Shown one piece after another: positions 35,373-55,490 of a DNA stretch of 59,880 bases. The position numbers and the translations under genes were made by a program. The notes beneath the pieces were generated by a model that saw only the letters and a program-made list of their open reading frames with translations, had not been told where the DNA came from and did no database searches. How positions within the stretch are numbered: position 1 is the first letter of the stretch; every line of letters starts with the position of its first letter. Source of the stretch: Escherichia phage vB_Eco_SLUR75. The stretch lies in sequence record LR025197.1. One strand, given 5' to 3'.

Positions 35373-35599
35373 TAGCGATCCTCGATTGCTCTAATTGTGG
35401 TTAAATCTAATTCACAGGTTGGAGGGTATCCATAAAGTCCCATTTGTTTTCCTTGTGCATTAAACCATGTACCTGACGGATCCTGCCACTGCTTAGGTGT
35501 CTTGTGGAGAAATACTACTCTGTTTTCACCGTAATAATTAATTCTTACGCCTGTGTGAGTATATTTACGTTTACCTTTTGGTCTTCTTAAGTTAGCCAT
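35372..35599 (-). CDS. Hypothetical basic protein (75 aa)
   Basis: Start/stop overlaps with both neighbours. Confidence 0.45.
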   Translation of the reverse strand: MANLRRPKGKRKYTHTGVRINYYGENRVVFLHKTPKQWQDPSGTWFNAQGKQMGLYGYPPTCELDLTTIRAIEDR

Positions 35600-36519
35600 C
35601 AGAACAACTCCATTACACGATCACGGAATGTGCCGTCATGGGTAGCGTTAATGTTTGCAGCAATTACACCATAAGCCCATAAATTGAAGGCAGCACGTGA
35701 TTCATAGATTGTTGATAAACGTTCGTAAGTGAAACCGTTTTGCTCAAGGTATTTAAGGACAGCGTCTTGTTCAATCTCAGTTAATGTTGAAACATGCTTA
35801 CCAAAATGATGGCGGTCCGGTGACTTATCGGATACGCGCATTGGACCCCACGGAGGAGTAACCACACTTCCAAACGCTGCCGCTTGAATCCAGGAGGATG
35901 AGTCACAGCTATACCACGGGTAACGCTCCATAATGGTTGTGGACGTAATACCAAACGCATGAAGTTTAATCTTAGCACGTCCGCTACCGTCGCAAATATA
36001 TTTGTCCCACATGCGGTCAAGCCAAGTCTTAAGCGTGTCCGTGGAACGTCCTACCATACCCCCGATAGTGATATATTCGTAGTTCTTCATGTAGTATTCA
36101 AGATAGCGGAAGTCCTCCCCAAAGTGAAAGCAAGGTAACGGTTTAGCACCGCGTGCTTCCATTTCAAGTTGGTTACGGTAGGTTTGCAACGGATCACCGA
36201 TACCATCGAGCACCGACGCCATTACTGCGCCATCTTCTACGCGAAGGATGTCTTTGTTGCGCTTGATGTATTCGCAGTATTCAACAATATCAATGTGAGC
36301 ACCTAACGAGTGCGCGGAGAATGCACCGGAGTCGAGAAACACTTTAGCCCCGTCCGCACGCATTTGATCAACATACTTCTGACGCCCAACGTAGTGGTAG
36401 GATTCCAAAATATGAGGCAGATTGCGCGTGATATTTTTCTCATGCTCTGACAGCTTTTCATAACGCTGCTGGCCAGGCATATATCCGTTCGTGTAAACTG
36501 CTGCCATAAAAACGTTCAT
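35599..36519 (-). CDS. dpdA: DpdA-like 7-deazaguanine DNA transglycosylase, TGT superfamily (306 aa)
   Basis: KVFLDSGAFS motif as I recall for phage DpdA; co-located with the preQ0 synthesis genes. Confidence 0.65.
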   Translation of the reverse strand: MNVFMAAVYTNGYMPGQQRYEKLSEHEKNITRNLPHILESYHYVGRQKYVDQMRADGAKVFLDSGAFSAHSLGAHIDIVEYCEYIKRNKDILRVEDGAVMASVLDGIGDPLQTYRNQLEMEARGAKPLPCFHFGEDFRYLEYYMKNYEYITIGGMVGRSTDTLKTWLDRMWDKYICDGSGRAKIKLHAFGITSTTIMERYPWYSCDSSSWIQAAAFGSVVTPPWGPMRVSDKSPDRHHFGKHVSTLTEIEQDAVLKYLEQNGFTYERLSTIYESRAAFNLWAYGVIAANINATHDGTFRDRVMELF

Positions 36520-36749
36520 TTTTGGAACGGTCCTCCAAACTGATCAATTAGTTCTAAAGTACGCCACGCTTCATTAAATGCTTCGTCCGCTCGATGTTTA
36601 GCGTCAATAAGCTGCTGCTTTAAAACATCTGTAGGCGCGTCATTCTGTATTGCAGAGCAAGCATCCGCAGTACCTGCTTTAAGCTGGTAGAATGCTGTCT
36701 CTAAGATTAGTTGTCTTGACATATTTCCTCCAATGACTAAAAAGCCCAT
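36516..36749 (-). CDS. Hypothetical protein (77 aa)
   Basis: ATGA-type overlap with dpdA start. Confidence 0.45.
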   Translation of the reverse strand: MGFLVIGGNMSRQLILETAFYQLKAGTADACSAIQNDAPTDVLKQQLIDAKHRADEAFNEAWRTLELIDQFGGPFQK

Positions 36750-36793
36750 ATCAGTATTATGACCGATATGGGCTTGATCTGTAAAGCTATCTA

Positions 36794-37435
36794 TTATTTA
36801 CAAGCTTCGAGAAACTCCCGGCGCCATTCTTTGCCAATATCGCTACCATGCCACAGTTCTGTAGCGCCCCGGAACGCTTTGGTAATAGTAGAGCTGCCGC
36901 ATACCTGCTTAACACCGCGCGACTCCATGCACATATGCTTGGCGTCAATATAAACACATACAGCTTTCGGGTTTAAATGCTCCTGAATAGCGTCTGCAAT
37001 CTGGTTAGTAAGACGTTCCTGAACTTGCAGTCGACGACTAAAAGCATCCACAACGCGAGACAGCTTACTAAGCCCAACAATCTTCCCATTGGGGACATAA
37101 CCAACAACAGCATGACCGATGATAGGAGCCATGTGATGCTCACAATGACTGTATACAGGAATATCACGGACAATGACCATTTCATTGGTGTTTTCCGCCC
37201 CATCCTCAAAGGTTTTAAACAGACCAGCGATATCTACATCGTAACCGCTAAACCATGTAGCATAAGCTTTAGCGACACGGTCTGGAGTCTCTGCTAATCC
37301 TGGACGTAATTCAATGCAATCTTCAATCTGAGTTAGTAAAGTATGCACCGCGCGAGCAATACGGAATTGAGTACCTTCGTTATCAATAGTAAATTTTGGC
37401 ATGGTTTGCAGTTTCCTTGTTGTTAATGTGGTCAT
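36794..37435 (-). CDS. folE: GTP cyclohydrolase I (213 aa)
   Basis: [20 protein letters not shown] and RLQVQERLT motifs match E. coli FolE. Confidence 0.9.
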
Positions 37436-37436
37436 A

Positions 37437-37973
37437 TTACAGGCTATAGTTTACGTGACATTTCGAAGTTTCTTCGATGGTGCATTCTACAAGTTGAACA
37501 CCATGTTCGTCAAGCAGTTGCGGACCAATCACGTCAACCATATATGCAGCTAAGTTTTCCGCAGTTGGGTTGAATGGTAAAGCTACCAATGAGCTTAAGA
37601 AATGCTCATGGTCTTCATGTTCCAGAGGACAACTCGGGCGACTTGCTGCAATTTTCAAAGCGTCAATCAAATTATCACGATTCCAATGCAGGAACTTATG
37701 ATCCCAATTATCTTCCAGCCACTGGCAGAGCGTAGTTTTAACCACACTAAAGTCGATAACTCGGCCCACATGGTCCAGCTTAGCTCGCTCTTTTACTTCG
37801 ACGTTGACAAGACCTCCGCCCATTTCAATTGGTACTTCTTTAACTGTTTCTTTCGGCGCAACCTTAAAGTGAAACTTATAGTTGTGACCGTGAAGGTGAC
37901 GACACTTGCTTTCATGCCCTACAACACGATGTCCAGCGCAAATTTCATGTGAACGAATTACTGTATAACTCAT
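37437..37973 (-). CDS. queD: 6-carboxy-5,6,7,8-tetrahydropterin synthase (178 aa)
   Basis: [22 protein letters not shown] (CxxH...C..HGH zinc/catalytic motif). Confidence 0.85.
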
Positions 37974-38560
37974 TTTAATACCTCTTTAGACTGTTCAATT
38001 TCTAACGCACGCTGCGCCGACGCAATAATGTCTTTCAAATCTTCTACCACATGCTTATGACCGCGTTCGCCAGGCTGCAACGCCTTTTTAATCAAATGTT
38101 GTAAAGCTGGGTTAGTTGTCTTCCAAGCTTCCAAGACATCATACACGTCCACGATGCATTTTACAACATTCCCATTTTGATCTTTACCATAAATAACTTT
38201 CTGATATTTATTCATGGGAATTTTAGACGGTTCGTATTTCGTAAAAACCGCACCATTAAATGTATTACTTATGCTTATTCCAGAAGAAGGTTGATTGTAC
38301 AATCCGGAGCGAGTGTTTTCGCTAGCCTGTTTGACGTAATCATCCGCAACGATATAGCGCCAGGCTATAATATCTTGAACTTTATAAGGGCTATTTTCAT
38401 CCATAGCTGAACGCCCTTCCATAGCCCAATCCCATCCATGTAATAGATTCTTAACGTGTGTGCCGTTGCGCAAACGAACTTCAAACTTCTCATTACGAAG
38501 AAAAATAGGCATTCCTTTACCGTCGTGTTGGTGCCAAATTTTATTCAAATTATCTTTCAT
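37970..38560 (-). CDS. Hypothetical protein inside the 7-deazaguanine cluster (196 aa)
   Basis: First ATG (M16) of track ORF, which begins with TTG; 2 nt after upstream stop. No QueF motif or other signature. Confidence 0.5.
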   Translation of the reverse strand: MKDNLNKIWHQHDGKGMPIFLRNEKFEVRLRNGTHVKNLLHGWDWAMEGRSAMDENSPYKVQDIIAWRYIVADDYVKQASENTRSGLYNQPSSGISISNTFNGAVFTKYEPSKIPMNKYQKVIYGKDQNGNVVKCIVDVYDVLEAWKTTNPALQHLIKKALQPGERGHKHVVEDLKDIIASAQRALEIEQSKEVLK

Positions 38561-38562
38561 TT

Positions 38563-39042
38563 TTACGCTCTCGCTGTACGTGAATGAACTTCGTAAACAA
38601 CCCAAAGGATAGCAGACGCTGTGAACTTACTTAAGCTCATTGCTACCATCGATCCCGGATTAACAATACCTATAATACTTAAGAACACAATGGAGTCAAT
38701 TGGTACAGCTACCAAAGAGCTGATAAATACTCGTTGATGGAAAGGCTTCTTGGTGACCGTGTATACTACATAGTCCGCAAACTCACTAAGCGCAAAAGAC
38801 GCAACGGATGCAACTACAACCGCAGGATTACCGAACACCCAGCTAAGGATGCAACCAACAATCATTGCAGGGATGACGCCTTTGCCAGCGTTACGCTGTG
38901 CGTAATCACGCAGAACAAAGATAATGCCTACAAAGAAAGCCATCATGGGGACTACGCCAAGTGGCGTATTAAGCATCGGAAGGTAGGAAAAGCCCAGGTT
39001 TACGAATGTAATTGCAGCCAGATAAGCAACGATAAATTTCAT
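38563..39042 (-). CDS. Integral membrane protein, possible queuosine-precursor transporter (159 aa)
   Basis: Four to five predicted TM helices; located between queC and queD. Transporter assignment is inference from context only. Confidence 0.3.
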   Translation of the reverse strand: MKFIVAYLAAITFVNLGFSYLPMLNTPLGVVPMMAFFVGIIFVLRDYAQRNAGKGVIPAMIVGCILSWVFGNPAVVVASVASFALSEFADYVVYTVTKKPFHQRVFISSLVAVPIDSIVFLSIIGIVNPGSMVAMSLSKFTASAILWVVYEVHSRTARA

Positions 39043-39162
39043 ACTTTTGTTCTCCAGTTTTAACAGCGTTATTCGCTGGTTGTTGGGTTTAAAAGCTTTA
39101 GTAGTATAGTTGGGTTACCGCACCCTAAACAATGCGCTAGCGGTGCGGTTTTCGCGGTAAGA

Positions 39163-39870
39163 TCAAGCTTTGCTAATAAATTCGCTGTACCCTTTAGCAC
39201 GAAGTTTACACGCTGGACATTCCCCGCAACCGTATCCCCAGTCATGCAGAGTACGACGGACGCCATTATAGCACGTATGGGACTGCTCAATTACTGTGGT
39301 TAAGAAACCAACCTTATCCGCCAGCTCAAACGTTTCCGCTTTGTTTAAACGCATAAGCGGAGTAACAAAATGGATATCTGTTTCATATCCAACGTTTAAG
39401 GTAGCTTCAAGTAGATCTACAAACTGCTGACGGCAATCCGGATAACCGCTATAGTCCGTTTCACAAACGCCTGTAACCACATATCGAGCTCCAACCTTCT
39501 GCGCGTAGGCGTGCGCGGTAGTCAGGAAAAGAGCATTACGGTTTGGCACAAAGCTTGCCGGAAGGTTGTTGTGCTGTTCGTGATGTTCGTTAACATCACC
39601 TTCATTCCCGATTAAAGCACTATTGCCGATCTGTTTCAAAGCAGGTAATTCAAAGACAACAAACGGGACATTGTGCTCTTTACAAATTTGATTAGCACAA
39701 GCCAGCTCAATGTTATGACGTTGACCGTATGCAAAACCGATAGCGTAGACTTTGTCATAGTTATTAAGTGCAAGACCTAGACAAGTCACGCTGTCCTGGC
39801 CGCCAGACAGGACGACAACGGCGGAGTTATGATTTTTTACAGGGAATACCAGTTTATCTAATTTATTCAT
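39163..39870 (-). CDS. queC: 7-cyano-7-deazaguanine (preQ0) synthase (235 aa)
   Basis: PP-loop VVLSGGQDS, GVCETDYSGYPDCR, C-terminal Cys cluster CYNG...GCGECPACKLR; aligns with E. coli QueC. Confidence 0.9.
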   Translation of the reverse strand: MNKLDKLVFPVKNHNSAVVVLSGGQDSVTCLGLALNNYDKVYAIGFAYGQRHNIELACANQICKEHNVPFVVFELPALKQIGNSALIGNEGDVNEHHEQHNNLPASFVPNRNALFLTTAHAYAQKVGARYVVTGVCETDYSGYPDCRQQFVDLLEATLNVGYETDIHFVTPLMRLNKAETFELADKVGFLTTVIEQSHTCYNGVRRTLHDWGYGCGECPACKLRAKGYSEFISKA

Positions 39871-40075
39871 TTACTTCACCTTTAATATCACAAGGGTTAA
39901 TTGTTACGTTAGACATTACAATTGGGTGATTACGCGCTCCAATTGTGCTAACGTAATTAATATCTAATTCTACATGCACGCCCTGCATAGTAGCATGGGC
40001 AATTGAAGAATTAAGTTTTTCTACCAGCTCAGTGATCATTTCCTGATGCTGTTTCGCTTCTTCCAAAGTGATCAT
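39863..40075 (-). CDS. Hypothetical protein (70 aa)
   Basis: Overlaps queC start by 8 nt. Confidence 0.45.
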   Translation of the reverse strand: MITLEEAKQHQEMITELVEKLNSSIAHATMQGVHVELDINYVSTIGARNHPIVMSNVTINPCDIKGEVNE

Positions 40076-40330
40076 TTAAACCTCCGTTAATGTTTGAGTC
40101 CAGTCTAAGCCTTCAAGATCTACATCAGCTATTTCATCGTACTCGTAAGCTTCCGGATCTGCTGGCAACCATCTATCAAAGCGATGGCTAAGTTCTGGAG
40201 GAATTGCTTCATATCCCCAAACCTTCCCATCCTTGTCGGCTGCCAGATAATCAACTCGACTTGGAACGGTTAAAGTGACACCACAAAAATTAACATCTTT
40301 AGTATGCACAACCTGGCTTAACACACGCAT
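40076..40330 (-). CDS. Small protein, paralog family member C (84 aa)
   Basis: YLAADKDGKVWGYEAIP and GLDWTQTLTEV motifs shared with paralogs A and B. Confidence 0.55.
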   Translation of the reverse strand: MRVLSQVVHTKDVNFCGVTLTVPSRVDYLAADKDGKVWGYEAIPPELSHRFDRWLPADPEAYEYDEIADVDLEGLDWTQTLTEV

Positions 40331-41037
40331 TATTCCACTCCGATATATTTGTGAACCTGAAGCTGCAACGTGTAACCGTGTTTCATACAGCTTTGGACAA
40401 CGGCTTGGATATTACTGTGGTTAAGGTCTTCATCCTGCTCGTCCATTGGCTGTAAATATATCTTACCCTTGAAACCCTTCGGAGGTCTAGCGATAAATGG
40501 CGTAGCTTGATGATCTAATGCTTGAAGAGGTAAACCATCTTCCACGTTTACACAGCACGCTTTAAGTACATATTTAAATGCATTAGCGCGGCGCAGCACA
40601 GAAGGATGAATCTTTGAGGTCTTGGGACTACATACAATTACAGGTAACTGGGAAAAGTTCTTAGGTAAAGGCATAGACCCATTAGTTTCAATTTGCACCA
40701 AATAGCCGCGCGATAACAGTTGTTCAATAAACGGGTTAATTTGCTGACGGAACGGTTCACCCCCAGTGATAACCACAAGTGAGGTGCTATTACCTGATTC
40801 CAGCTTACGGCTTTCGATTAAACGCATAATATCGACAATATGATAAAGACTACGACCAACAGTATAATCGGTATCACAGCCAGGGCATTGCAGATTACAC
40901 CCAGCAAGACGCACAAATACAGCAGGTTGGCCGCAGAATGGACCTTCACCCTGAATGGTAGAGAATACCGAATGCACGTCTAAATACATATCGTTTTCTT
41001 TAGAACGGGACTCGGGAGCTTGTTGATTAATATTCAT
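40330..41037 (-). CDS. queE: 7-carboxy-7-deazaguanine synthase, radical SAM (235 aa)
   Basis: FSTIQGEGPFCGQPAVFVRLAGCNLQCPGCDTDY aligns with E. coli QueE; strong RBS GAGGA before the ATG. Confidence 0.85.
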   Translation of the reverse strand: MNINQQAPESRSKENDMYLDVHSVFSTIQGEGPFCGQPAVFVRLAGCNLQCPGCDTDYTVGRSLYHIVDIMRLIESRKLESGNSTSLVVITGGEPFRQQINPFIEQLLSRGYLVQIETNGSMPLPKNFSQLPVIVCSPKTSKIHPSVLRRANAFKYVLKACCVNVEDGLPLQALDHQATPFIARPPKGFKGKIYLQPMDEQDEDLNHSNIQAVVQSCMKHGYTLQLQVHKYIGVE

Positions 41038-41059
41038 CTTAAATCCTCTAGTGAAAAAG

Positions 41060-41081
41060 AAAGCGCCTCATTGGGCGCTTT
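41060..41081 (-). terminator. Terminator hairpin downstream of KA-rich gene
   Basis: AGCGCC-tcattg-GGCGCT stem; on the reverse strand it is followed by a T-rich run. Confidence 0.5.
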
Positions 41082-41106
41082 CATTATAACGTGATATGTT
41101 TTGATA

Positions 41107-42037: not shown

Positions 42038-42532
42038 TTAGCTCTTCGCACCTCTGCCCGGTGTCCATGCTGCTTGCAATGCGGGTTGCTCACAAATGAC
42101 CCTGGCACCGGAAATAATACCACCCTCCCGTTCAGCATCGTATTTGACACGGGCAGGTTTCCAAAGTCCTTCATCCATTGACGGTACGTATTGCCCAAGT
42201 TGAGGCGAGCAAAAGCCCTGGATATCATATTCCACACAGAATTCGGCTTGTGCGCTAATTTGGGCGTGATCCAGGATTGTTTCTGGAAGTTGCGTAAAGT
42301 AATCAGACAAAATGCGCTCAACGATTTCCCGTTCATATGGTGCAGCTCCTAAGTTTTCTGTCAGGTTAATATAAAGCATTTGAAGATCAACATCTTCAAG
42401 ATCTTTTAAATCGTTTACTGGTGTTACCAGTGTTGACTCCGGACAACAGATAATTCCAAGTTGGTGTAGTGTCAACCAATTGGGATGTTTTGCCAAGAGT
42501 TCAAATTTATCTGTATCAATTAGGACGTACAT
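42038..42532 (-). CDS. Hypothetical protein (164 aa)
   Basis: ORF with RBS-like GGGGATTG upstream; no recognisable motif. Confidence 0.5.
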   Translation of the reverse strand: MYVLIDTDKFELLAKHPNWLTLHQLGIICCPESTLVTPVNDLKDLEDVDLQMLYINLTENLGAAPYEREIVERILSDYFTQLPETILDHAQISAQAEFCVEYDIQGFCSPQLGQYVPSMDEGLWKPARVKYDAEREGGIISGARVICEQPALQAAWTPGRGAKS

Positions 42533-42591
42533 TGCAATCCCCTATAAATAAGTAATGCCCCAATAGTAGGGGCATTAGATGTTGAAGTCAA

Positions 42592-44568
42592 TTAGAACGG
42601 GACGTAATCCGGATCATCTACTTGTACAGGGTTAACCACATTGTTCACCGTTATGCCTTGCGTATTCTGCGAAACAATATCGTCCCAGCTTACATCATCG
42701 TTATAGCTCGGACCTTCTGTTGTTCCATCCTGCCCGTATACTTTAACCTGAATTGCTTCGTCGTCCTGTGGGGCTTCAAACTTACCGAAGCACGTACCGT
42801 CATAATCATAGTTCAATATCTCAGGCCACTTCTTATTGGTATGAACTTTGATGTATTTTGGTGTTTTAAGCATTGCAGCAACATCAAGAGCTTCTTCTAT
42901 AGTTTGTGGTAAAGGTAAATGTGTCCTTTTCTTCCACCATGCGACAGCTTTACGACCTGCCCAGTCCCCATGAAGCAGAGCTACCCATTCGCTGAATATT
43001 TTACTACCGCAATAATAAGTCACCTTCATTGTTGGAGGTTTAGAGCTGTCATTGCGTTTAGTATGCTTTGCATAAGTAACATGCGTAACTTTGAAGTCTT
43101 CAACTACTGGAATATCCTGCTTGATCAGGGCTTCCGTACTTGCAGCTTTCTTGAGTTTGGTCTGGAACTTAAACTCATGACCGCAAAAGCCTTCTTTAAC
43201 GTAATCCGTCCCGCGTAGCCTAAATCCTTTCAGATATAATTGTTGAACTTGTTCCTGTGTGACGCTGTCCATTGGGATTGGTGCGAAGCCACCGCAATAG
43301 CGAGCGGATGCATGATTATACGACCCACATACATCGCATTCTTTAACCGGAGCAGTACCAGCACCTTTTTCGCCAGGGCGCTTGGGTTTAACAGGGTCGT
43401 TAATAGGGCCCAAACGGCGCGTATTACCGCTGAAATCCAGTACAAGGCAGTTCTGCTTGGGGCTTGCCGCAATAGCTTGTAAGCGCCCCTCCTGCGTGGA
43501 AAGATCAAAGCCCTCCGCGTACACCGGACGCGTACCGCGACCCAGCATCTGGACCCATAGCACCGCCGACGCAGTGGGGCGGAGCATGATAATTAAGTCC
43601 AGCATTGGATGATCAAAACCTGTGGTTAAGACGTTATTGTTAGTTAATGCTCGAAATTCACCGCGCTTAAACTTTTCAATAATCTCGTCACGTTCTTTTG
43701 CATCAAGCTTAGAGTGAATACATCCACAGCTAATACCCATATCGTTCAGCATATCACACGCGTCTTTAGCGTGTTCAATACCAGAACAAAATATAAGCCA
43801 GCTTTGACGGTCTTCACCACATTCAATTGCTTCCTCAAGTGCGCGGAGTGTTGCGTCATCGCGGTTTACCGCACTTTGCAGCTCACTCTGGATAAACTCA
43901 CCGCCGCGTTTACCTACCCCGTTGAGGTCCAGCTCCATCTTAGTACGCTTTGGCACAACCGGAAGAAGATAACCTTGTTCCAGGAACCAGTTGAAGGCTT
44001 CCGGAGTAGTTGCATCAAACGTTACCTTATCAAATAACGCATCATCGTCTTCGTTTTCCTTAACAATTGAACCATACCCCAGTCGATAAGGTGTAGCAGT
44101 AAGACCGATAATTTTTAAGTAAGGGTTAACTTCACGCAACGCTGCAAAGAACTTCTTATACATTGTTGCATCACGCGGACTAATAAGATGCGCTTCGTCC
44201 ACAAAAATAAGATCAACTTTGCCGAACTTTTTCGGATGCTTAGCAACGGACGCAATCCCTGCAAAGGTAATAAGATTATAGACTTCTTTACGCTTCAAAC
44301 CCGCGCTGTAAATACCTGCTGGCGCTTCGGGCCAGACTTTCATTAATTTATCATAGTTTTGTGCAATTAACTCTTTGACGTGAGTTAACATCATTACGCG
44401 CTGGTTTGGATACCATTTGTAAAGCAGATCGAGGAACCCCGCGATAACGAGCGATTTTCCTGTCCCTGTTGGTAACAGGATCAAAGGGTTCCCCGCGTTA
44501 CCCTTTTCAGCATCAAAATAGCGGAATACGCTATAAACTGCTTCCTGTTGATAATCGCGGAGTTGCAT
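42592..44568 (-). CDS. SF2 DEAH-box DNA helicase (658 aa)
   Basis: Walker A LLPTGTGKS, motif II FVDEAHLIS, Q-motif-like DYQQEAV; C-terminal Cys pairs. Confidence 0.7.
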   Translation of the reverse strand: MQLRDYQQEAVYSVFRYFDAEKGNAGNPLILLPTGTGKSLVIAGFLDLLYKWYPNQRVMMLTHVKELIAQNYDKLMKVWPEAPAGIYSAGLKRKEVYNLITFAGIASVAKHPKKFGKVDLIFVDEAHLISPRDATMYKKFFAALREVNPYLKIIGLTATPYRLGYGSIVKENEDDDALFDKVTFDATTPEAFNWFLEQGYLLPVVPKRTKMELDLNGVGKRGGEFIQSELQSAVNRDDATLRALEEAIECGEDRQSWLIFCSGIEHAKDACDMLNDMGISCGCIHSKLDAKERDEIIEKFKRGEFRALTNNNVLTTGFDHPMLDLIIMLRPTASAVLWVQMLGRGTRPVYAEGFDLSTQEGRLQAIAASPKQNCLVLDFSGNTRRLGPINDPVKPKRPGEKGAGTAPVKECDVCGSYNHASARYCGGFAPIPMDSVTQEQVQQLYLKGFRLRGTDYVKEGFCGHEFKFQTKLKKAASTEALIKQDIPVVEDFKVTHVTYAKHTKRNDSSKPPTMKVTYYCGSKIFSEWVALLHGDWAGRKAVAWWKKRTHLPLPQTIEEALDVAAMLKTPKYIKVHTNKKWPEILNYDYDGTCFGKFEAPQDDEAIQVKVYGQDGTTEGPSYNDDVSWDDIVSQNTQGITVNNVVNPVQVDDPDYVPF

Positions 44569-44569
44569 A

Positions 44570-45478
44570 TCAATCTTTCCCGTAATAATTAGCTACTTGA
44601 TAGTTTCGACAACCAACTTTCTGCCCTTGCGTATCCACTGCGGCGGAATGGAAATTGCAATACCATGTTCCATCTTCTTTTGGTTCAAGGAATTGGCATG
44701 TGCGGCAGTTTACTTCCGGCATAGTTTTACGCCAGCATAGTGAGGAGTGATCGCACCATTTACATTCGAAGAAAGTGGAATCTTTAAATGCGCGGTCCGG
44801 AATATCTGTAGCAATAGCAATCTGCACACCACGATCAATATACATGTCCGCGGTAACAGGATCAAACGGAATAATTTCTGCGTAAACTTCATCGTCATTC
44901 TTGTTTACAGCAAGATATAACGCTGCGCCAAGACCTAGTTTTCGCATGTACACGTTCATCTGTACATAGTGCTCAGGTTTGGCTTCTTTAACACCTTTAG
45001 CTTTCAGCTTTTTAAAAGACTTATCGTTATGCGTCTTCATTTCGGTGAGCACAGGCATCCCAGGCTGCACGTCCGGACAACCTATAACCACACCATCGCA
45101 GGAACCGCCAAAGTGTCCGCCAGCTTCGCTGATACGGAACTGGTGTCCATTTTCGTCCTGCTGATAGACCTGCATACCTGCCGCAAGAAGCATAGCAATG
45201 AAACGCGCTTCTTCAAGATGTCCGCGGTTAAACAGTCGAAGCTGGCGTCCGTCAAACTCTTTGCGTGTAGCCCAGCGATATCCATAGAAAAGCTTGCGTG
45301 CGCATTGCTGCCCAATAAGGGAAGCGCCTAAGTGGCTGCGGTTACCGCTTTCAGGGCGATAAGCGTCTTCAATTGTGGGAATGACTACGCCAAGATACTT
45401 ACGGTAAGTCCCACCCTGATCTTTTTGCACACCGTCATTGATCGCTTGAAGTGTTTTTTCTGCAATATAAATAGCCAT
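44570..45478 (-). CDS. PD-(D/E)xK exonuclease, Cas4/RecB-like (302 aa)
   Basis: SCDGVV...LTEMKTH (D...ExK) and C-terminal CKWCDHSSLC (CxxCxxxxxC) with additional Cys. Confidence 0.5.
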   Translation of the reverse strand: MAIYIAEKTLQAINDGVQKDQGGTYRKYLGVVIPTIEDAYRPESGNRSHLGASLIGQQCARKLFYGYRWATRKEFDGRQLRLFNRGHLEEARFIAMLLAAGMQVYQQDENGHQFRISEAGGHFGGSCDGVVIGCPDVQPGMPVLTEMKTHNDKSFKKLKAKGVKEAKPEHYVQMNVYMRKLGLGAALYLAVNKNDDEVYAEIIPFDPVTADMYIDRGVQIAIATDIPDRAFKDSTFFECKWCDHSSLCWRKTMPEVNCRTCQFLEPKEDGTWYCNFHSAAVDTQGQKVGCRNYQVANYYGKD

Positions 45479-45543
45479 TGGAATACCTTAGAAAAATAAG
45501 CCGTCTTTCGACGGCTTATGGACACTACAGAGGGAGGGTTATC

Positions 45544-46431
45544 TTACTGCTGCCACGGCGGGACTGCTGCTTGTGCCGGATGCGGTTCAGCTTGCTGCTG
45601 CGGCTGAGCTTGCTGCTGAGGTGCTGCTGCCTGGCCCGGCTGTGCTACCTGCTGCGCCCACGGCTGCTGAGCTGCTTCCGGTGCTACTGGCTGTTGTACC
45701 GGAGCTTGCTGCACTGGCTGCTGAGGTGCTGCGTTTTGAGCAGGATTATCCCACGGCTGCGGTGCGGCATTCTGCCACGGTTGTGCTGCTGCGCCCTGCT
45801 GTGGTGCTTGTTGCTGCTGCACAGGCTGCTGAACTGGCTGCTGTTGCTGCACCGGAGCTTGCTGCTGTACAGGCGCTTGCTGTTGCTGAGCAAACGGGTT
45901 AGCTGCTGGTTGCTGTGGTGCTGCGCCCGGGAAAGCTGGCTGCTGAGCTGGCGCACCTGCACCGAACGGGTTAGCTACTGCCGCTTGAGCACCCATTGCT
46001 GGAGCACCTGCTTCTTTTTCCGCATACTTAACCGGATCGTTGATGTTAGCATAACCGTTAGGCTCGTTGCTGTCTTCATAACCTTCCTGAGAACGAACTT
46101 TCAGACGCAGGTTCAGCGGAATGTTATGCAGTTGAGCAGGAGTATCCCAGCGAATTACGCCAACCGCATGGGAAAGCGCGCCCAGTTGCTCGTAAGCGAT
46201 ACGCACGGTATCTTCGTTATCGTTGATAACGTTATAACGAGCGAAGATTTTACGACCTTTAGCAAAACCATCAATGATGCTAAACGTTACCTGGATCGCC
46301 ATACCGCCATTTTTGGTCGCTTTGAACTCAGACGCTTCAATTACCGCTTTATACCAACCTTTTGGCAATGCGCCATAAGAAGGTGCTTGATAGCTGCTCG
46401 CGTCAAAAGAGAATTTAGTTGGCATAGTCAT
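45544..46431 (-). CDS. Putative ssDNA-binding protein (DUF669-like) with Gln/Pro/Ala-rich tail (295 aa)
   Basis: Adjacent to and coupled with the Sak4-like ATPase gene; C-terminal low-complexity QQAPVQQQ tail. Confidence 0.4.
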   Translation of the reverse strand: MTMPTKFSFDASSYQAPSYGALPKGWYKAVIEASEFKATKNGGMAIQVTFSIIDGFAKGRKIFARYNVINDNEDTVRIAYEQLGALSHAVGVIRWDTPAQLHNIPLNLRLKVRSQEGYEDSNEPNGYANINDPVKYAEKEAGAPAMGAQAAVANPFGAGAPAQQPAFPGAAPQQPAANPFAQQQQAPVQQQAPVQQQQPVQQPVQQQQAPQQGAAAQPWQNAAPQPWDNPAQNAAPQQPVQQAPVQQPVAPEAAQQPWAQQVAQPGQAAAPQQQAQPQQQAEPHPAQAAVPPWQQ

Positions 46432-47159
46432 TAGTTAATACCTTTCATTTTGTTGATAACAGAACCTAAGTGTGGGACTTCAACCGCATCTAAACGTCCC
46501 GAACGATCCTTAGCGATTGTATTAAAGTCCGGTTGAGTTTGCAAGTAACGATACGAGTTACCTTGCTGATCCTTATTTACATTCAGACGAAACACTTCGT
46601 CGAAGAAGTAAGGGAGCATTTGCCCCAATTTGGATCCAGGCATAGATGGAGCATACGCGGTAACACCGGAGACTTCATCTTTGTCTTTGCCCATTTTAGC
46701 AGACATATAAACATGTTTGCCAGGAATATCGCGAAATTTACGGATCAGATCTTGCATCTTTTCAAGCAAAGTACCATAAGCTTGACGAGGATCTTTCGTT
46801 CCCTTTTTCGCGTTGTTTAAACATTGTTCAGCAATTTCGCTCAAGCTGTCAAGCGCAATAGAATCGAAATACTGCTGGTTAGCTGGAGTTACGCACCACT
46901 GATAAGCCGCTTCAACGTCTTCCAGACATTTCACTTCAATTACCGGAATATCGTAAACGATGGGCAAACCCATGTTACCATAAACACGGTTAAGGTTTTC
47001 CGCTGCAATAGACAACAGACCGGATTCTGCGCTGATTAAAATTGGTTTAGGTAATGTGGCTACAAGGCTGGTTTTACCCATACCTGCTTCACCGTAAACC
47101 AGAATTTTGACACCTGTGTCCTGCACAACTTGTGAAGACATTTTAATTTCAATGGCCAT
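46431..47159 (-). CDS. Sak4-like RecA-fold recombination ATPase (242 aa)
   Basis: Walker A ILVYGEAGMGKTSL near N-terminus; size typical of Sak4. Confidence 0.6.
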   Translation of the reverse strand: MAIEIKMSSQVVQDTGVKILVYGEAGMGKTSLVATLPKPILISAESGLLSIAAENLNRVYGNMGLPIVYDIPVIEVKCLEDVEAAYQWCVTPANQQYFDSIALDSLSEIAEQCLNNAKKGTKDPRQAYGTLLEKMQDLIRKFRDIPGKHVYMSAKMGKDKDEVSGVTAYAPSMPGSKLGQMLPYFFDEVFRLNVNKDQQGNSYRYLQTQPDFNTIAKDRSGRLDAVEVPHLGSVINKMKGIN

Positions 47160-47224
47160 TTAACGCCTCTCTTTTAAGTTCGCGCTCATTGTAACGTAAT
47201 ATACTTTGAACCCTCAATTACTTT

Positions 47225-48139
47225 TTAATCTAAAACCTGATCACTTTCATCGCGGAAATGCATAAAGTTTGCAAAACGCGGTTTATCTTTCACGCCATGA
47301 GGGAAGTGTTTATATGAAATAGTCCGACCTTTAATTTTGTCAGGGTTATTCCAATAATAAATCTTATCCTCTTGCGTTAGTTTACCAGGACTAACGTTGA
47401 TTGTATTGCCCGTCTTAACGTCTTTACAAACCAACGTCCCGATCATACCGTTAGGAACTTTATTTTCCTGATGTGAAGATCGTGTAGTCCTTCCCAGCTC
47501 GTTAACAGTAGCTTCATTAAGATTAGTTTCACCCTCAATAATATCAAGGACAATAGCATCTTCCTGAATAAAGCGTTTAATACGAAGATATCCACCTTCA
47601 CGAACTGTGCCGCGCCCATGTTTATAAGGCTTGTCAGGATCACGGATAATAATACCTTCATAACCCATATCAAGCCAGATGTTTTCCCAGTAGAGCAACT
47701 CTTCTAAAGACTTAACCACATACATTGGCACAACTTGCAGGTCGAGCAATTCACCTTTCGCGTGCTGTGTGGTTATAAAATCTTTCATCATGTTGTAGCG
47801 GGCTTCATAGCCCAGCTCTGCAACACTCTCAGCGCACAGATCAAAGATGTGCCATTTCAGGAACGGTTCACCTTCAATTGTGTTTACCGCACTGGTTGTT
47901 TTACGACACAGGTCTGGATCTGTTTCCACCCCTGCTGCAAGCTCACCGTCATAGCCCATGTATTGAGAACCGCTGAAAATTGCGCTGGTATGGCGGTTTT
48001 TAAACAGCTTTAAGCTTCGCCCTACTATCTGCCCGTCCGGATTTAAACCGCGCACACCGTCGATTTTAGGCAGTATACAGCACGGAAACTTAATCTTTTC
48101 TTCAACCGCGTCAGTCGCTAAATGTGGCTTGAATGCCAT
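47225..48139 (-). CDS. ATP-dependent DNA ligase (304 aa)
   Basis: Motif I KIDGVRG (KxDGxR adenylation lysine), motif IV-like EGIIIRDP. Confidence 0.8.
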   Translation of the reverse strand: MAFKPHLATDAVEEKIKFPCCILPKIDGVRGLNPDGQIVGRSLKLFKNRHTSAIFSGSQYMGYDGELAAGVETDPDLCRKTTSAVNTIEGEPFLKWHIFDLCAESVAELGYEARYNMMKDFITTQHAKGELLDLQVVPMYVVKSLEELLYWENIWLDMGYEGIIIRDPDKPYKHGRGTVREGGYLRIKRFIQEDAIVLDIIEGETNLNEATVNELGRTTRSSHQENKVPNGMIGTLVCKDVKTGNTINVSPGKLTQEDKIYYWNNPDKIKGRTISYKHFPHGVKDKPRFANFMHFRDESDQVLD

Positions 48140-48148
48140 ATGTCCTCC

Positions 48149-48802
48149 TTACATTTCATAGTCAAAGTCTGACCAGTCTGAGCGAGTTGTAATTGAATTT
48201 ACGCCCATACCTTTACCCATAGAACGCCGCCAAACGGTTGCAGCTTTTTGAGCTTTCTCTTTCATACGAGTATTGCGACGTAAATGTCCGCTGCCCTTTT
48301 TAGGTCTATTTTCCTTTTTCTTTGCTTCGGAAATAAGCTCTTTGCATTCCTGCAAACGGATCTTGCTTCTTTCCAATCGCATAGCAGAACGCGCACGTTC
48401 ATCGCAAAATCTTTGGGCTTTACTACGCTGGTCCTGATTACTTGTATGACCTTTAACGTGGCGAAACTCAATAGTAAGATTATATTTACGAAGTTGATCG
48501 TTCAACCATTTGAAAGCTACACCTTCCTGTTCACTCTTCCAGCTTGCCTCTTTATACACTTTAATAGCTGTTGAACAATCTGTTTGCACAATTAAATGAT
48601 CGCCCGGATGGATTAATTTAGCCTTCATTCCCTCCCAAATAACATTACAGATTGCCATTGTTTCAGCTGCATTATTATCAGGAGCTCCGCGTAACGGTCC
48701 ACCGTTAGCGTTATTTCCACGGTTGCACACTACCCAGCCACCGTATCCCGCGGCTTTTGTATTTGGACAAAAACTTGCATCAGATATAATTGTTACTCTC
48801 AT
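48149..48802 (-). CDS. RNase H-like nuclease with basic C-terminal extension (217 aa)
   Basis: Catalytic-residue pattern ISDASF...AETMA...VQTDCS...VKGHTSNQ...DERA. Confidence 0.6.
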   Translation of the reverse strand: MRVTIISDASFCPNTKAAGYGGWVVCNRGNNANGGPLRGAPDNNAAETMAICNVIWEGMKAKLIHPGDHLIVQTDCSTAIKVYKEASWKSEQEGVAFKWLNDQLRKYNLTIEFRHVKGHTSNQDQRSKAQRFCDERARSAMRLERSKIRLQECKELISEAKKKENRPKKGSGHLRRNTRMKEKAQKAATVWRRSMGKGMGVNSITTRSDWSDFDYEM

Positions 48803-48843
48803 TATTTATCCTTAATAAAAAGGGGTCTGTTGACCCCTTATAG

Positions 48844-51236: not shown

Positions 51237-51704
51237 TTATTGGATTGATCCGCGATCAATTAACCATTGTTTCGCGTGCGCTTTAAAGATAATGCGGTAG
51301 TCATCGAGACTAATTTCCGCGCGGATGGAATCTTTAACTTCATACCACTGCCATTCACCATTACTGAAGACAACCGGATTAAGCGGTAGAACGACCTTCC
51401 ATCCTTTACGTTCTATTTTATACATCAGAACTGGATATCTGCCAAGCTCTTTAGCAGATTGGACAGTCTGCTTCCACCATGTGTTTACTTGTGGCGTAGC
51501 ATGGTTTTTTACTTCAACCGCATGGTGGCATGTATTGCTGATATCACAACCACCGACAGCACTTTGATTCTGGTTTCGCTGAGCAATAGGTTTTTCCGGT
51601 AACTGCATCCCCAGCTCTGCGTAGATTTCGGCATAAATTGCATTAAAGAAATCACATACTTCCCGCTCACCGCGTTGACCTTTAGCGCGAATATTTACTG
51701 CCAT
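51237..51704 (-). CDS. Hjc-type Holliday junction resolvase (155 aa)
   Basis: N-terminal AKGQRGEREV matches the KGxxxERE motif of archaeal-type Hjc; ATG at M11 of track ORF with GGAG RBS. Confidence 0.55.
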   Translation of the reverse strand: MAVNIRAKGQRGEREVCDFFNAIYAEIYAELGMQLPEKPIAQRNQNQSAVGGCDISNTCHHAVEVKNHATPQVNTWWKQTVQSAKELGRYPVLMYKIERKGWKVVLPLNPVVFSNGEWQWYEVKDSIRAEISLDDYRIIFKAHAKQWLIDRGSIQ

Positions 51705-51776
51705 GTTTGTCTCCATAACTTTAATGTAAAACACTTCATAAAGAATTTTATATTGAAGTTATGTTGATCGCAAGGA

Positions 51777-53125: not shown

Positions 53126-53149
53126 AAAGGGCCTTTCGGCCCTTTATTT
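53126..53149. terminator. Bidirectional terminator
   Basis: AAAGGGCC-tttc-GGCCCTTT hairpin with flanking A- and T-runs. Confidence 0.65.
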
Positions 53150-55490
53150 ATTCCTCTTCTCCTAAGTTTGCCATAATACCTTCAACATCTTGCGTAATGC
53201 GCCAAGCTGCGCCAGTGAATCCCAGTTTGATAGTCTCCTCCCGTGTTACCGGAACAAGAGCACCCATAGCAACCATCTCCTTGATCGTAGACTCAATTGC
53301 TGCGGACAATCCGTGGTGATAGTTTTTAAACGCGGACTTACTTGCAAGACGAGTAGTAATATCACCCCGCGTGATTATGCCTTCCTTACGCAGATCTACA
53401 CGTTTAACTTTCACCCAATCTTTAGTTAGATAATTCACACAAACCTGGCACATAGTACGGATACGAGCTTCGTCATTAGTACCGATACCCCCACTATGCC
53501 ATTCCTTCATAATGATATCCTGTCCATGACGCACAAAGTCCAAGGCCCATTGAACATGATAGGTCTGCACAACCGGATTGATCCAGTTTTCTCCCACAGC
53601 TAACAGGGCGGATAGACGTAACACCTTCAGGTGCGCACGGTTCCACGGCTGACGGATTGCTTCGTCTTTGGTTGCGTTAATATTACGGTCACATTCGTCG
53701 TTAAACTGATCACATAATGCTTCCGCATCCGGGCTAAACTGCACTTCAATACTTTGATGCTTTGCCATTGCGACTAAGGTGTGGTTAACAAGATGGCACA
53801 CCATATCCCGCAAATGCTGATCCATTGTAGTCTGCTGGTTCTTGTTTAAAGGTGGTCGATCCCCTTCATAGCGGACAACATGGAAACGGGATAAGAAACC
53901 ATCCTCCATCATTTCACGCGTCAACGCTTCAAAAAACGTGTCCGGTGTCGTTTCGCCCATGATGCTATAGGCCACACCTTGTTGAGCTTCCGTATTATTA
54001 GCCTTATCAGAATAAGACATACCACCGACAATAGACATCTGACCAGACTTTTGATAAACATCGGTGAGGTCGTTCTTGAAGCTTTGCATCGGTGAACCTG
54101 CTGGCGCTGTTGCCATTGCTTTAATAATCTTACCAAACTCACCGTTCAAGTTGATAAAAGATTGTTTGTCCGCAAAAGATTTACGCAACGCAGAGCCGGA
54201 AGCGCATCGGTCAAAAGATACAAAGCTATGAATCTGCGGAAACGGTTCCTGAAGCTGGCTAACTATATTAGATAGACCACTGTTCAACGTTTCTTTACCA
54301 ACACCAGAACGAGCAATAAGGACAAAATATCCATTAAGACCGGATTGAGGAATCTGCCAAACCTTCCCGCATACGCCAGCCATAAATCCTAGTGCTGTCA
54401 CAATAGAAATTTCTTTCACTGGTCGGACGGATGCTTTGTAGATGTACTTCGCAAGCTCCCCAGCAAGTCCCGGCGGCCAGTCAATAGCGGTTGCATCAAT
54501 AGATGTACTTTCTGCAACTACTGTCTGCCCCTGTGTTGTTTCAACAGTTACGGGCATTTCCGCTACCTGCTGCATTGCACTGTGTGCCGCTTGCATACGG
54601 GCAGCATAATCCCGCGCCAGCGCCGCTACGTTTTCCTGGGCAATGCGCTCACGCTCCATGCGACCGCGACACATACGCAAGCAACGGTCAATATGAACAT
54701 TGTTCTTATTAGCCTTCTCACGTTTGCCCAGTGCGCTATAACGGAACAGACGACGACATTGCTCATTACTTTCCGTGTAAAATGCATACATAGAAATAAG
54801 GGCAAGGTCTGCTTCAGACTGGGAAGGGAATCCCATTTCAACCCATTCACCATTAAATAACCGCGCATACTTATCACCGTTATCTGCTTCAAGTGCGCGC
54901 TGATGAATAGTTGCATCATCTTCTACCGGATCTTTTTCTACCAGTTCAATTTCATATGTCTTGCGCTGAAGATCAATTTCATTCACAAGCATCGTAAGGT
55001 AATGATCACGTTCTGCAACTGGTTTGTTGTAGACGGGATTGCCCGTGCAGATAATAAAACGCTCCTGACTATAAACCTCGACACCATCACGTCGACGACC
55101 TTTACCGATGTTACCTCTTAACCACAGGTGAACACCCAAGCCTGAGCGGCTCACTTCGGTGTAAGTATCGAACGCAGTCATGATCTGTTCGAAGCGGCGC
55201 AACTGCTCCGGCGTCGTGTGCTTCTTGGGATCAGGTTCATTGGTTGCATTCTTCACATCCAGGTCGATGCAGGTGAACGGGTCTTGTGCAGTAAGCACGA
55301 ATCCAATATAAGGTTTATTGAAATGAGCGGCGCAACCTTTGGCAGCTTCAAACGTCATAAGCATATCCGGATCGGTAACGTCCGCCGCCATCAAACGTCC
55401 AATATCGCTATCCCATACCAACGGCTTTTTATCCGCATCGGCGACCGCCCATTGTGGGAAAGCTTTAATTTCAGCGGGAAACAGTTCCAT
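53148..55490 (-). CDS. Primase-polymerase / helicase fusion (780 aa)
   Basis: N-terminal archaeo-eukaryotic-primase-like motifs CIDLDVKN and GLGVHLWLRGN; central P-loop LIARSGVGKETL. Confidence 0.6.
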   Translation of the reverse strand: MELFPAEIKAFPQWAVADADKKPLVWDSDIGRLMAADVTDPDMLMTFEAAKGCAAHFNKPYIGFVLTAQDPFTCIDLDVKNATNEPDPKKHTTPEQLRRFEQIMTAFDTYTEVSRSGLGVHLWLRGNIGKGRRRDGVEVYSQERFIICTGNPVYNKPVAERDHYLTMLVNEIDLQRKTYEIELVEKDPVEDDATIHQRALEADNGDKYARLFNGEWVEMGFPSQSEADLALISMYAFYTESNEQCRRLFRYSALGKREKANKNNVHIDRCLRMCRGRMERERIAQENVAALARDYAARMQAAHSAMQQVAEMPVTVETTQGQTVVAESTSIDATAIDWPPGLAGELAKYIYKASVRPVKEISIVTALGFMAGVCGKVWQIPQSGLNGYFVLIARSGVGKETLNSGLSNIVSQLQEPFPQIHSFVSFDRCASGSALRKSFADKQSFINLNGEFGKIIKAMATAPAGSPMQSFKNDLTDVYQKSGQMSIVGGMSYSDKANNTEAQQGVAYSIMGETTPDTFFEALTREMMEDGFLSRFHVVRYEGDRPPLNKNQQTTMDQHLRDMVCHLVNHTLVAMAKHQSIEVQFSPDAEALCDQFNDECDRNINATKDEAIRQPWNRAHLKVLRLSALLAVGENWINPVVQTYHVQWALDFVRHGQDIIMKEWHSGGIGTNDEARIRTMCQVCVNYLTKDWVKVKRVDLRKEGIITRGDITTRLASKSAFKNYHHGLSAAIESTIKEMVAMGALVPVTREETIKLGFTGAAWRITQDVEGIMANLGEEE

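Follow-up and report, generated by a model that had tools for sequence, protein, structure and literature searches.

The window analysed here is the whole 59,880-nucleotide (nt) stretch of Escherichia phage vB_Eco_SLUR75 (LR025197.1), and the system in question is a block of minus-strand genes for a Sak4-type ATPase, a DUF669-family predicted single-stranded DNA (ssDNA)-binding protein (SSB), a Cas4-like nuclease and a RadD-like helicase. The list of open reading frames (ORFs) gives ligase, Sak4, DUF669, nuclease and helicase as five consecutive minus-strand genes, with the ligase directly upstream of Sak4. An initial annotation, made from the sequence alone, described the middle three as a coupled Sak4-type recombination module flanked by a DEAH helicase and an ATP-dependent ligase. 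All three ORFs lie on the minus strand where that annotation placed them and carry the motifs quoted for them, namely GEAGMGKTS, a CxxCxxxxxC cluster and a Q/P/A-rich tail. Both flanking genes are confirmed by their DEAH and KIDG motifs and by Pfam and PHROG matches. The four genes that concern us most, with protein lengths in amino acids (aa), are:

46431-47159, minus strand: Sak4-type ATPase, 242 aa
45544-46431, minus strand: DUF669-family protein, 295 aa
44570-45478, minus strand: Cas4-like nuclease, 302 aa
42592-44568, minus strand: RadD-like superfamily 2 (SF2) DEAH helicase, 658 aa, with GTGKS at 35 and DEAH at 124; matches ResIII, Helicase_C and phrog_16

Conserved gene order

The order of these genes was examined in 80 IMG/VR loci with a Sak4 relative (51-100% identity), whose ORFs were searched with hidden Markov models (HMMs) built from our own alignments. 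Every locus that extends far enough has the order Sak4, DUF669, nuclease, helicase on one strand, without exception, and all four genes are present in 49 loci. In 75 of the 80 the gene after Sak4 is a DUF669 gene; the other five have no detected gene downstream of Sak4, which there sits at most about 260 nt from the contig end. The ligase is directly upstream of Sak4 in 24 loci, 13 of which have RNase H as well. Nonagvirus SE1 and Pseudomonas phage 73 share the four-gene order. Four genes, not three, make up the conserved unit: Sak4, SSB, nuclease and RadD-like helicase. The initial annotation had likened the arrangement to Sak4-dependent modules described in other phages, and this likeness is borne out by phage 73, by the Sak4-SSB pair of phage HK620 (PMC5928155) and by a survey of Firmicutes phages in which sak4 lies mostly upstream of both ssb/DUF669 genes and genes for ResIII/Helicase_C helicases (PMC8093625). 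Some 80% of sak4 genes adjoin an ssb gene (PMC5928155).

The locus is closely matched among deposited phages. In a megablast search of positions 42500-48200 against deposited phage genomes the best match is Escherichia phage Skure (98.6% identity), with CAjan at 98.4% and Seurat at 96.8%. The search returned 34 records, 32 of which have at least 80% query coverage. From these near-identical records the window is therefore assigned, on nucleotide identity, to the Seuratvirus coliphages (Queuovirinae), which are siphoviruses with a 7-deazaguanine DNA-modification gene cluster. Genes gp48-gp52 of CAjan (NC_028776) and their counterparts in other Seuratvirus genomes (Skure, Seurat and the BASEL Bas phages) have 96-98.6% DNA identity over the same interval, with the same genes in the same order; the differences are point differences and SSB tail-length variation, with no functional difference. 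CAjan RefSeq labels gp49 as ‘Cas4-domain exonuclease’, gp50 as ‘DUF669-containing hypothetical protein’ and gp51 as ‘Sak4-like ssDNA annealing protein’, and several deposited phages have a Sak4 protein 100% identical to that of the window. The module is therefore already known, and it is ordinary for this phage group. No discussion of Sak4 in Queuovirinae specifically was found in the literature searched.

Phage 73 (PA73) provides the more distant comparison. Its gp032-gp029 encode Sak4, SSB, a Cas4-domain exonuclease and an SF2 helicase, followed by a clamp-like protein and a DNA polymerase. Each of the four has a homologue in the window, at 28-42% identity, including 33% for the nuclease (E 3e-59) and 42% for the helicase (E 3e-167). 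Phage 73 differs in that it has no upstream ligase or RNase H, its helicase lacks the acidic extension and tip described below and its nuclease has an N-terminal extension.

Predicted proteins of the module

The 242-aa ATPase matches Pfam AAA_24 (PF13479) over residues 16-220 (E 1.2e-27, 97.4 bits against a cut-off of 27), phrog_124 ‘Sak4-like ssDNA annealing protein’ (E 1.7e-59) and TIGR01618 phage_P_loop (E 2e-14). AAA_24 is also matched by 32/32 aligned homologues, and by HK620 Sak4 (30 bits). A Walker A motif, GEAGMGKT(S), occupies residues 23-31 and a Walker B-like IALDS residues 101-105. Residues K29, T30, E45, D104 (the Walker B Asp) and R204 are invariant in the alignment of 32 homologues; E45 is the putative catalytic Glu and R204 the putative Arg finger. 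The protein falls within the core-only size class (<290 aa, without a RecA C-terminal or DnaB domain), the 290-aa upper limit being that of the published core-only definition (PMC2896510). It aligns with phage 73 Sak4 over its full length by hhalign (probability 99.9, E 1.3e-33, 222 columns) and at 28% identity by BLASTP (E 3e-30). A RecA/RadB-like fold was assigned to the Sak4 family by profile-profile comparison (PMC2896510; family literature also PMC8093625), and on the strength of that literature the window protein would have a RecA-like fold. Profiles and motifs support a predicted core-only RecA-like annealing ATPase, in agreement with the initial annotation.

The 295-aa product of the next gene was initially called a DUF669-like SSB, and this name holds at profile and model level. 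It matches PF05037 (DUF669) over profile positions 2-138 of 138 (E 8e-15, 55.6 bits, cut-off 21), along with phrog_13350 and phrog_6015 ‘SSB’ (E 1.6e-36 for the latter). The folded N-domain spans approximately residues 1-140, and the remaining ~150 residues are a Q/A/P-rich linker. Modelled with AlphaFold (pLDDT 77), residues 1-160 form an OB fold of five strands with one helix inserted. The model's best Protein Data Bank (PDB) match by Foldseek is PrgE of plasmid pCF10 (8s4t, DNA-bound; E 3.4e-6, probability 1.0, TM 0.51-0.62), which has an OB fold and binds ssDNA in filament form (PMC11137577); canonical bacterial SSBs come next as weak matches (E ~1e-2). Matches in BFVD, which holds predicted viral structures, are DUF669/SSB proteins. 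These results support a predicted ssDNA-binding protein of the DUF669 family with a modelled OB fold. A T7 gp2.5-like protein was considered and set aside, gp2.5 being absent from the top 50 fold matches.

The tail of this protein (150 residues) is 33% Q, 25% A and 19% P, has three acidic residues, is essentially uncharged and ends in AVPPWQQ. A proline-tryptophan tip occurs near the C-terminus in 67/67 complete relatives listed; it reads PPW in nearly all, with APW and PFW as variants, and an automated PPW regular expression applied to no more than the last 12 residues picked out 63 of those 67. PPW is nearly invariant in the SSB alignment and is followed by 2-12 residues, often KK or Q-rich. 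In the window its codons lie at 45553-45561 (C-terminus 45547-45561). By alignment, the SSB has a conserved short C-terminal motif, not the classical acidic tip. The PPW tip may be a functional counterpart of the NDYPPF tail through which the HK620 SSB stimulates Sak4. SSB length ranges from 262 to 302 aa among relatives, with the variation in the Q/A/P-rich tail; short tandem repeats of 12 and 18 nt in the tail-coding sequence probably explain it. A 318-aa plus-strand ORF at 45478-46434 was rejected as a gene: it is L/R/C-rich and antisense to the DUF669 Q/A/P tail, whose CAG/GCN-rich coding gives rise to it as an artefact.

The nuclease is best recognized through PHROG, where it matches phrog_1990 ‘Cas4-domain exonuclease’ at E 6e-118 and, weakly, the RecE-like phrog_434. 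Its family has 4903 matches, is tightly conserved and has no precomputed Pfam domain. The motifs are EMK (146-148), QMNVY (173-177) and CKWCDHSSLC (CxxCx5C, 239-248). Across 44 homologues H87, E89, E90, D128, E146, K148, Q173 and Y177 are invariant, as are the Cas4-type cysteines C59, C239, C242 and C248, which are putative Fe-S ligands. The AlphaFold model (pLDDT 90) is closest in the PDB to Cas4 SSO0001 (4ic1; E 5e-4, probability 1.0, TM 0.37/0.51), then to lambda Exo (3sm4; E 2e-3) and Cas4 Pcal_0546 (4r5q; E 3e-3). These fold scores are modest (E 5e-4 to 3e-3, TM 0.37-0.52), and lambda Exo scores similarly to Cas4. Weak Pfam matches among the 44 family members include Cas_Cas4 (5/44) and PDDEXK_1 (9/44), as well as Exo5 and Zn_ribbon.

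The nuclease has no CRISPR neighbours; the adjoining genes are those of Sak4, SSB, helicase and ligase. Because its Cas4 match is below threshold and it has no CRISPR association, the protein is ‘Cas4-like’ and not Cas4 proper, and the original wording was apt. Motifs and model make ‘Cas4-like Fe-S PD-(D/E)xK exonuclease’ a defensible name for the predicted enzyme, and its polarity, by analogy with Cas4 and lambda Exo, would be 5'->3'. A second set of four invariant cysteines (C258, C261, C274 and C290; residues 258-291, at 44606-44707) is zinc-ribbon-like and is modelled as a small beta element; some family members have weak Zn_ribbon_RPB9/Elf1 matches there. PDB profile searches with the Sak4 and nuclease alignments returned only matches to Nic96 and ankyrin repeats, which were dismissed as spurious, and single-sequence PDB searches with Sak4, the DUF669 protein and the nuclease gave nothing meaningful.

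The helicase matches E. coli RadD (PDB 6jde) over residues 3-348 (E 1e-54). It also matches NCBIfam heli_RadD_YejH (NF053632) at E 1.8e-78, where its 264 bits compare with an equivalog cut-off of 720 and the match covers profile positions 1-359 of 573. On these matches the protein is best described as homologous to RadD in its motor core rather than orthologous. RadD itself speeds up strand exchange by RecA (PMC8887467); the C-terminus of SSB, SSB-Ct, stimulates it (PMC8887467, PMC10238739) and binds in a pocket framed by Arg21, Arg49 and Arg145 (PMC10238739). In a single phmmer pairwise alignment to 6jde, with an insertion nearby that leaves the evidence weak, these arginines align with D19, N55 and K152 of the window helicase. 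A Seuratvirus helicase of equal length, ‘Heli22’ from Bas22 (658 aa), triggers Retron-Eco11 and has been classed with UvsW and D10, both branch-processing helicases (PMC12746101).

The C-terminal 70 residues of the helicase (42592-42801) form an acidic, probably disordered extension with 14 D/E and 2 K/R that ends in DDPDYVPF (tip codons 42595-42615). The helicase of Nonagvirus SE1 ends in PDFDDDIPF, and E. coli SSB ends in MDFDDDIPF (PMC10238739). An acidic stretch followed by [IVL]PF closes 15 of the 34 complete helicases in related loci, and the same type of tip is found in about 24 of the 150 best helicase cluster representatives from a library of 1.8 billion proteins, roughly one in six. 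In the window the helicase is the only ORF with an acidic tip ending in Pro-Phe; one other pattern match ends in …EILPY. No publication describing an SSB-Ct-like helicase tip was found in the literature searched, and both this tip and the PPW tip of the SSB are apparently undescribed. A tail that folds back onto the helicase's own RadD-type SSB-Ct pocket was considered and is unsupported, two of the three pocket arginines not being conserved.

It is possible, if somewhat doubtful, that partner-docking tails have been redistributed in this lineage, such that the helicase tail is a functional SSB-Ct mimic and the phage SSB keeps a non-acidic PPW tip. If so, the tail would dock the module onto the SSB-Ct pockets of host genome-maintenance proteins, or onto phage Sak4 or polymerase, and could compete with host SSB for such pockets. 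Docking on the phage polymerase would resemble the T7 gp4 tail. Several close helicase homologues (P0363, P0365, P0391, P0417 and others) are 800-1583 aa long with the match split into three to five stretches, a pattern suggestive of inteins or other insertions within this gene in some phages. In one Seuratvirus record a homing endonuclease lies in the helicase region.

Expression units and neighbouring genes

Two genes precede the block, and three terminator-like hairpins from a terminator scan lie in or around it:

48149-48802, minus strand: RNase H, 217 aa; PF00075 (E 3e-9), phrog_531 (E 8.5e-39)
47225-48139, minus strand: ATP-dependent DNA ligase, 304 aa, with KIDG at 25; DNA_ligase_A_M and OB_2, phrog_114 (E 2.6e-59)
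48820-48839, minus strand: terminator-like hairpin upstream of RNase H
45496-45519, minus strand: terminator-like hairpin between the SSB and nuclease genes, with a 10-bp GC-rich stem, GAAA loop and TTTTT
42553-42577, minus strand: terminator-like hairpin shortly after the helicase stop codon

The description of the three genes as coupled stands in part. The Sak4 stop codon overlaps the DUF669 start (TAATG), as coupling would have it, but the DUF669 and nuclease genes are separated by 65 nt that hold the hairpin at 45496-45519, and the nuclease pairs instead with the helicase, whose start lies 1 nt after the nuclease stop. The RNA fold of this hairpin has a dG of -18.3 kcal/mol (z -4.26), and 0/200 shuffles fold as well. 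Of 49 related loci, 20 have a hairpin with a T-run at the same position, built from unrelated stem sequences; most of the 20 belong to the closest clade. Hairpin positions and gene overlaps therefore suggest two predicted expression units: RNase H-ligase-Sak4-SSB, in which RNase H is the first gene, and nuclease-helicase. A promoter scan was uninformative, with 18 sites found against 16.9 expected by chance, and for this reason a TTGAGG-18-TACAAT sequence upstream of sak4 is not claimed as a promoter.

A fourth strong terminator-like hairpin lies on the minus strand at 41059-41082, and together the four divide the leftward gene arm into units. The module is followed directly, at 35599-41037, by a 7-deazaguanine DNA-modification cluster with queC, queD, queE, folE and a TGT/DpdA-like gene, as expected for Queuovirinae. 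Further upstream, the gene at 51237-51734 has a counterpart that CAjan RefSeq calls a ‘RusA-like Holliday junction resolvase’; its Pfam match is PDDEXK_15, a phage PD-(D/E)xK endonuclease family (E 1.9e-13), not RusA. The 780-aa ‘DNA primase’ at 53148-55490 contains an NrS-1 polymerase helix-bundle domain, is probably a prim-pol of the NrS-1 type and would likely supply the replicative helicase. The RadD-like enzyme is therefore most likely a recombination accessory.

Proposed pathway, alternatives and significance

The block is most probably the recombination and recombination-dependent-replication module of Seuratvirus, preceded by RNase H and ligase. In the proposed pathway the Fe-S PD-(D/E)xK nuclease would resect DNA ends 5'->3', probably with the helicase encoded 1 nt downstream, and the DUF669 OB-fold protein would coat the exposed single strand (3' tails). 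Sak4, stimulated by its cognate SSB via the SSB C-terminal tip, would then anneal complementary single strands in an ATP-dependent manner. The RadD-like helicase may process or accelerate branched intermediates, as RadD does for RecA; the ligase would seal nicks and a junction endonuclease encoded further upstream would resolve junctions. The expected outcome would be repair of broken phage genomes and formation of concatemers for packaging.

Several known systems give this pathway its precedents. HK620 Sak4 (HkaL) is an ATP-dependent annealase that is stimulated by its DUF669-type SSB (HkaK) via the SSB C-terminus, a functional interaction demonstrated experimentally (PMC5928155). As in the window, the HK620 sak4 gene lies immediately upstream of, and overlaps, a DUF669-type ssb, and it encodes a short Walker A/B AAA_24 ATPase. 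The HK620 proteins differ in being remotely related and in belonging to other PHROGs (2872 and 743), their SSB ends in NDYPPF as against PPWQQ in the window, and the HK620 module has no nuclease and helicase of its own but is paired with the RecBCD hijacker Abc2. Lambda Red (Exo and Beta) and RecET share with the window the logic of a PD-(D/E)xK 5'->3' exonuclease plus an annealase. In contrast to them, the window annealase is predicted to be RecA-like and ATP-dependent, not Rad52-like, the nuclease has Cas4-type Cys ligands and a zinc-ribbon-like tail, and the block adds an SSB and a helicase. E. coli RadD (YejH) with RecA and SSB offers a parallel set of a RecA-family protein, an SSB and a RadD-type accelerator. 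The C-terminal half of RadD differs from the window helicase, which itself carries the SSB-Ct-like tip.

Some results weigh against this interpretation. Biochemical activities, resection polarity, the partnerships of Sak4 with SSB and of nuclease with helicase, and the biological role are all inferred from characterised homologues. Direct comparison of the window Sak4 and SSB with their HK620 counterparts is nearly empty: BLASTP aligns only the Walker A region and hhalign probabilities are 16% and 1%, respectively. The HK620 SSB itself has no Pfam DUF669 match with the current model. The link to biochemistry therefore runs through shared family profiles and phage 73, and the activity of phage 73 Sak4 was only ~4-fold over background (PMC5928155). 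In HK620 an acidic/aromatic C-terminal tip on the SSB mediates the stimulation of Sak4; the window SSB lacks such a tip and ends in PPWQQ. When the Sak4 profile is compared with E. coli RecA by hhalign, Walker A and B fall in register but the match is weak (E 0.008, probability 5%), and PDB HMM searches with Sak4, as a single sequence or an alignment profile, gave no RecA-family match. The nuclease has no Pfam match at E <= 5 and none in NCBIfam, and falls below the Cas_Cas4 (PF01930) and PDDEXK_1 thresholds. Family searches, which the initial annotation had named as its check, thus gave strong Pfam matches for Sak4 and DUF669, with the nuclease recognized via PHROG and not via Pfam Cas4.

The better of the alternatives, which we nevertheless regard as unlikely, is a set of replication-fork accessory proteins in which DUF669 is the replicative SSB, Sak4 loads or regulates the adjacent helicase and the nuclease processes flaps or primers. 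The genes do lie inside a replication arm that includes RNase H, ligase, prim-pol, DNA polymerase and a clamp-like protein, many records call the Sak4 homologue just ‘ATPase’ or ‘NTP-binding helicase protein’, and no second SSB match was obtained among the window genes tested with Pfam and PHROG. DNA replication of staphylococcal phage phi11 required Sak4 and its cognate Ssb (PMC5499656). However, genetics in staphylococcal phages ties Sak4 and Ssb to genome repair and concatemer formation, and the replication defect of phi11 and 80alpha was ascribed to recombination-dependent concatemer formation (PMC5499656), so the replication-accessory reading overlaps the recombination reading. Sak4 proteins of phage 73, active in an oligonucleotide recombineering assay, and of HK620 promote oligonucleotide recombination in vivo (PMC2896510, PMC5928155), and a Cas4/lambda-Exo-type nuclease with a RadD-like helicase represents recombination and repair enzymes, not fork components.

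It is very improbable that the nuclease, possibly with the helicase, serves an anti-defence or host-takeover function unconnected with Sak4 (interference with CRISPR adaptation, which has been proposed for Cas4 carried by phages, or host DNA degradation), as its Cas4-like motifs and fold, the terminator-like hairpin that splits nuclease-helicase from Sak4-SSB and retron sensing of the helicase (PMC12746101) might suggest, because strict Sak4-SSB-nuclease-helicase co-linearity across phages as distant as phage 73 (Sak4 at 28% identity) points to a common pathway, neither cas genes nor CRISPR arrays were seen in the neighbouring genes that were inspected, and lambda Exo and RecE, with which annealases classically pair, belong to the same nuclease fold family.

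As initially described, the module changes little: it confirms that PHROG-style automated annotation of Seuratvirus genomes is sound, and shows that a Sak4 module can be recognized from its motifs alone, without tools. The module is of practical interest as a compact, self-contained recombination kit of a virulent coliphage and is a candidate for recombineering. Its helicase triggers a retron defence, which makes the module relevant to phage sensing. The helicase and SSB tips, the zinc-ribbon-like tail of the nuclease and the terminator split could show how phage recombination proteins are wired to one another and to the host SSB interactome.

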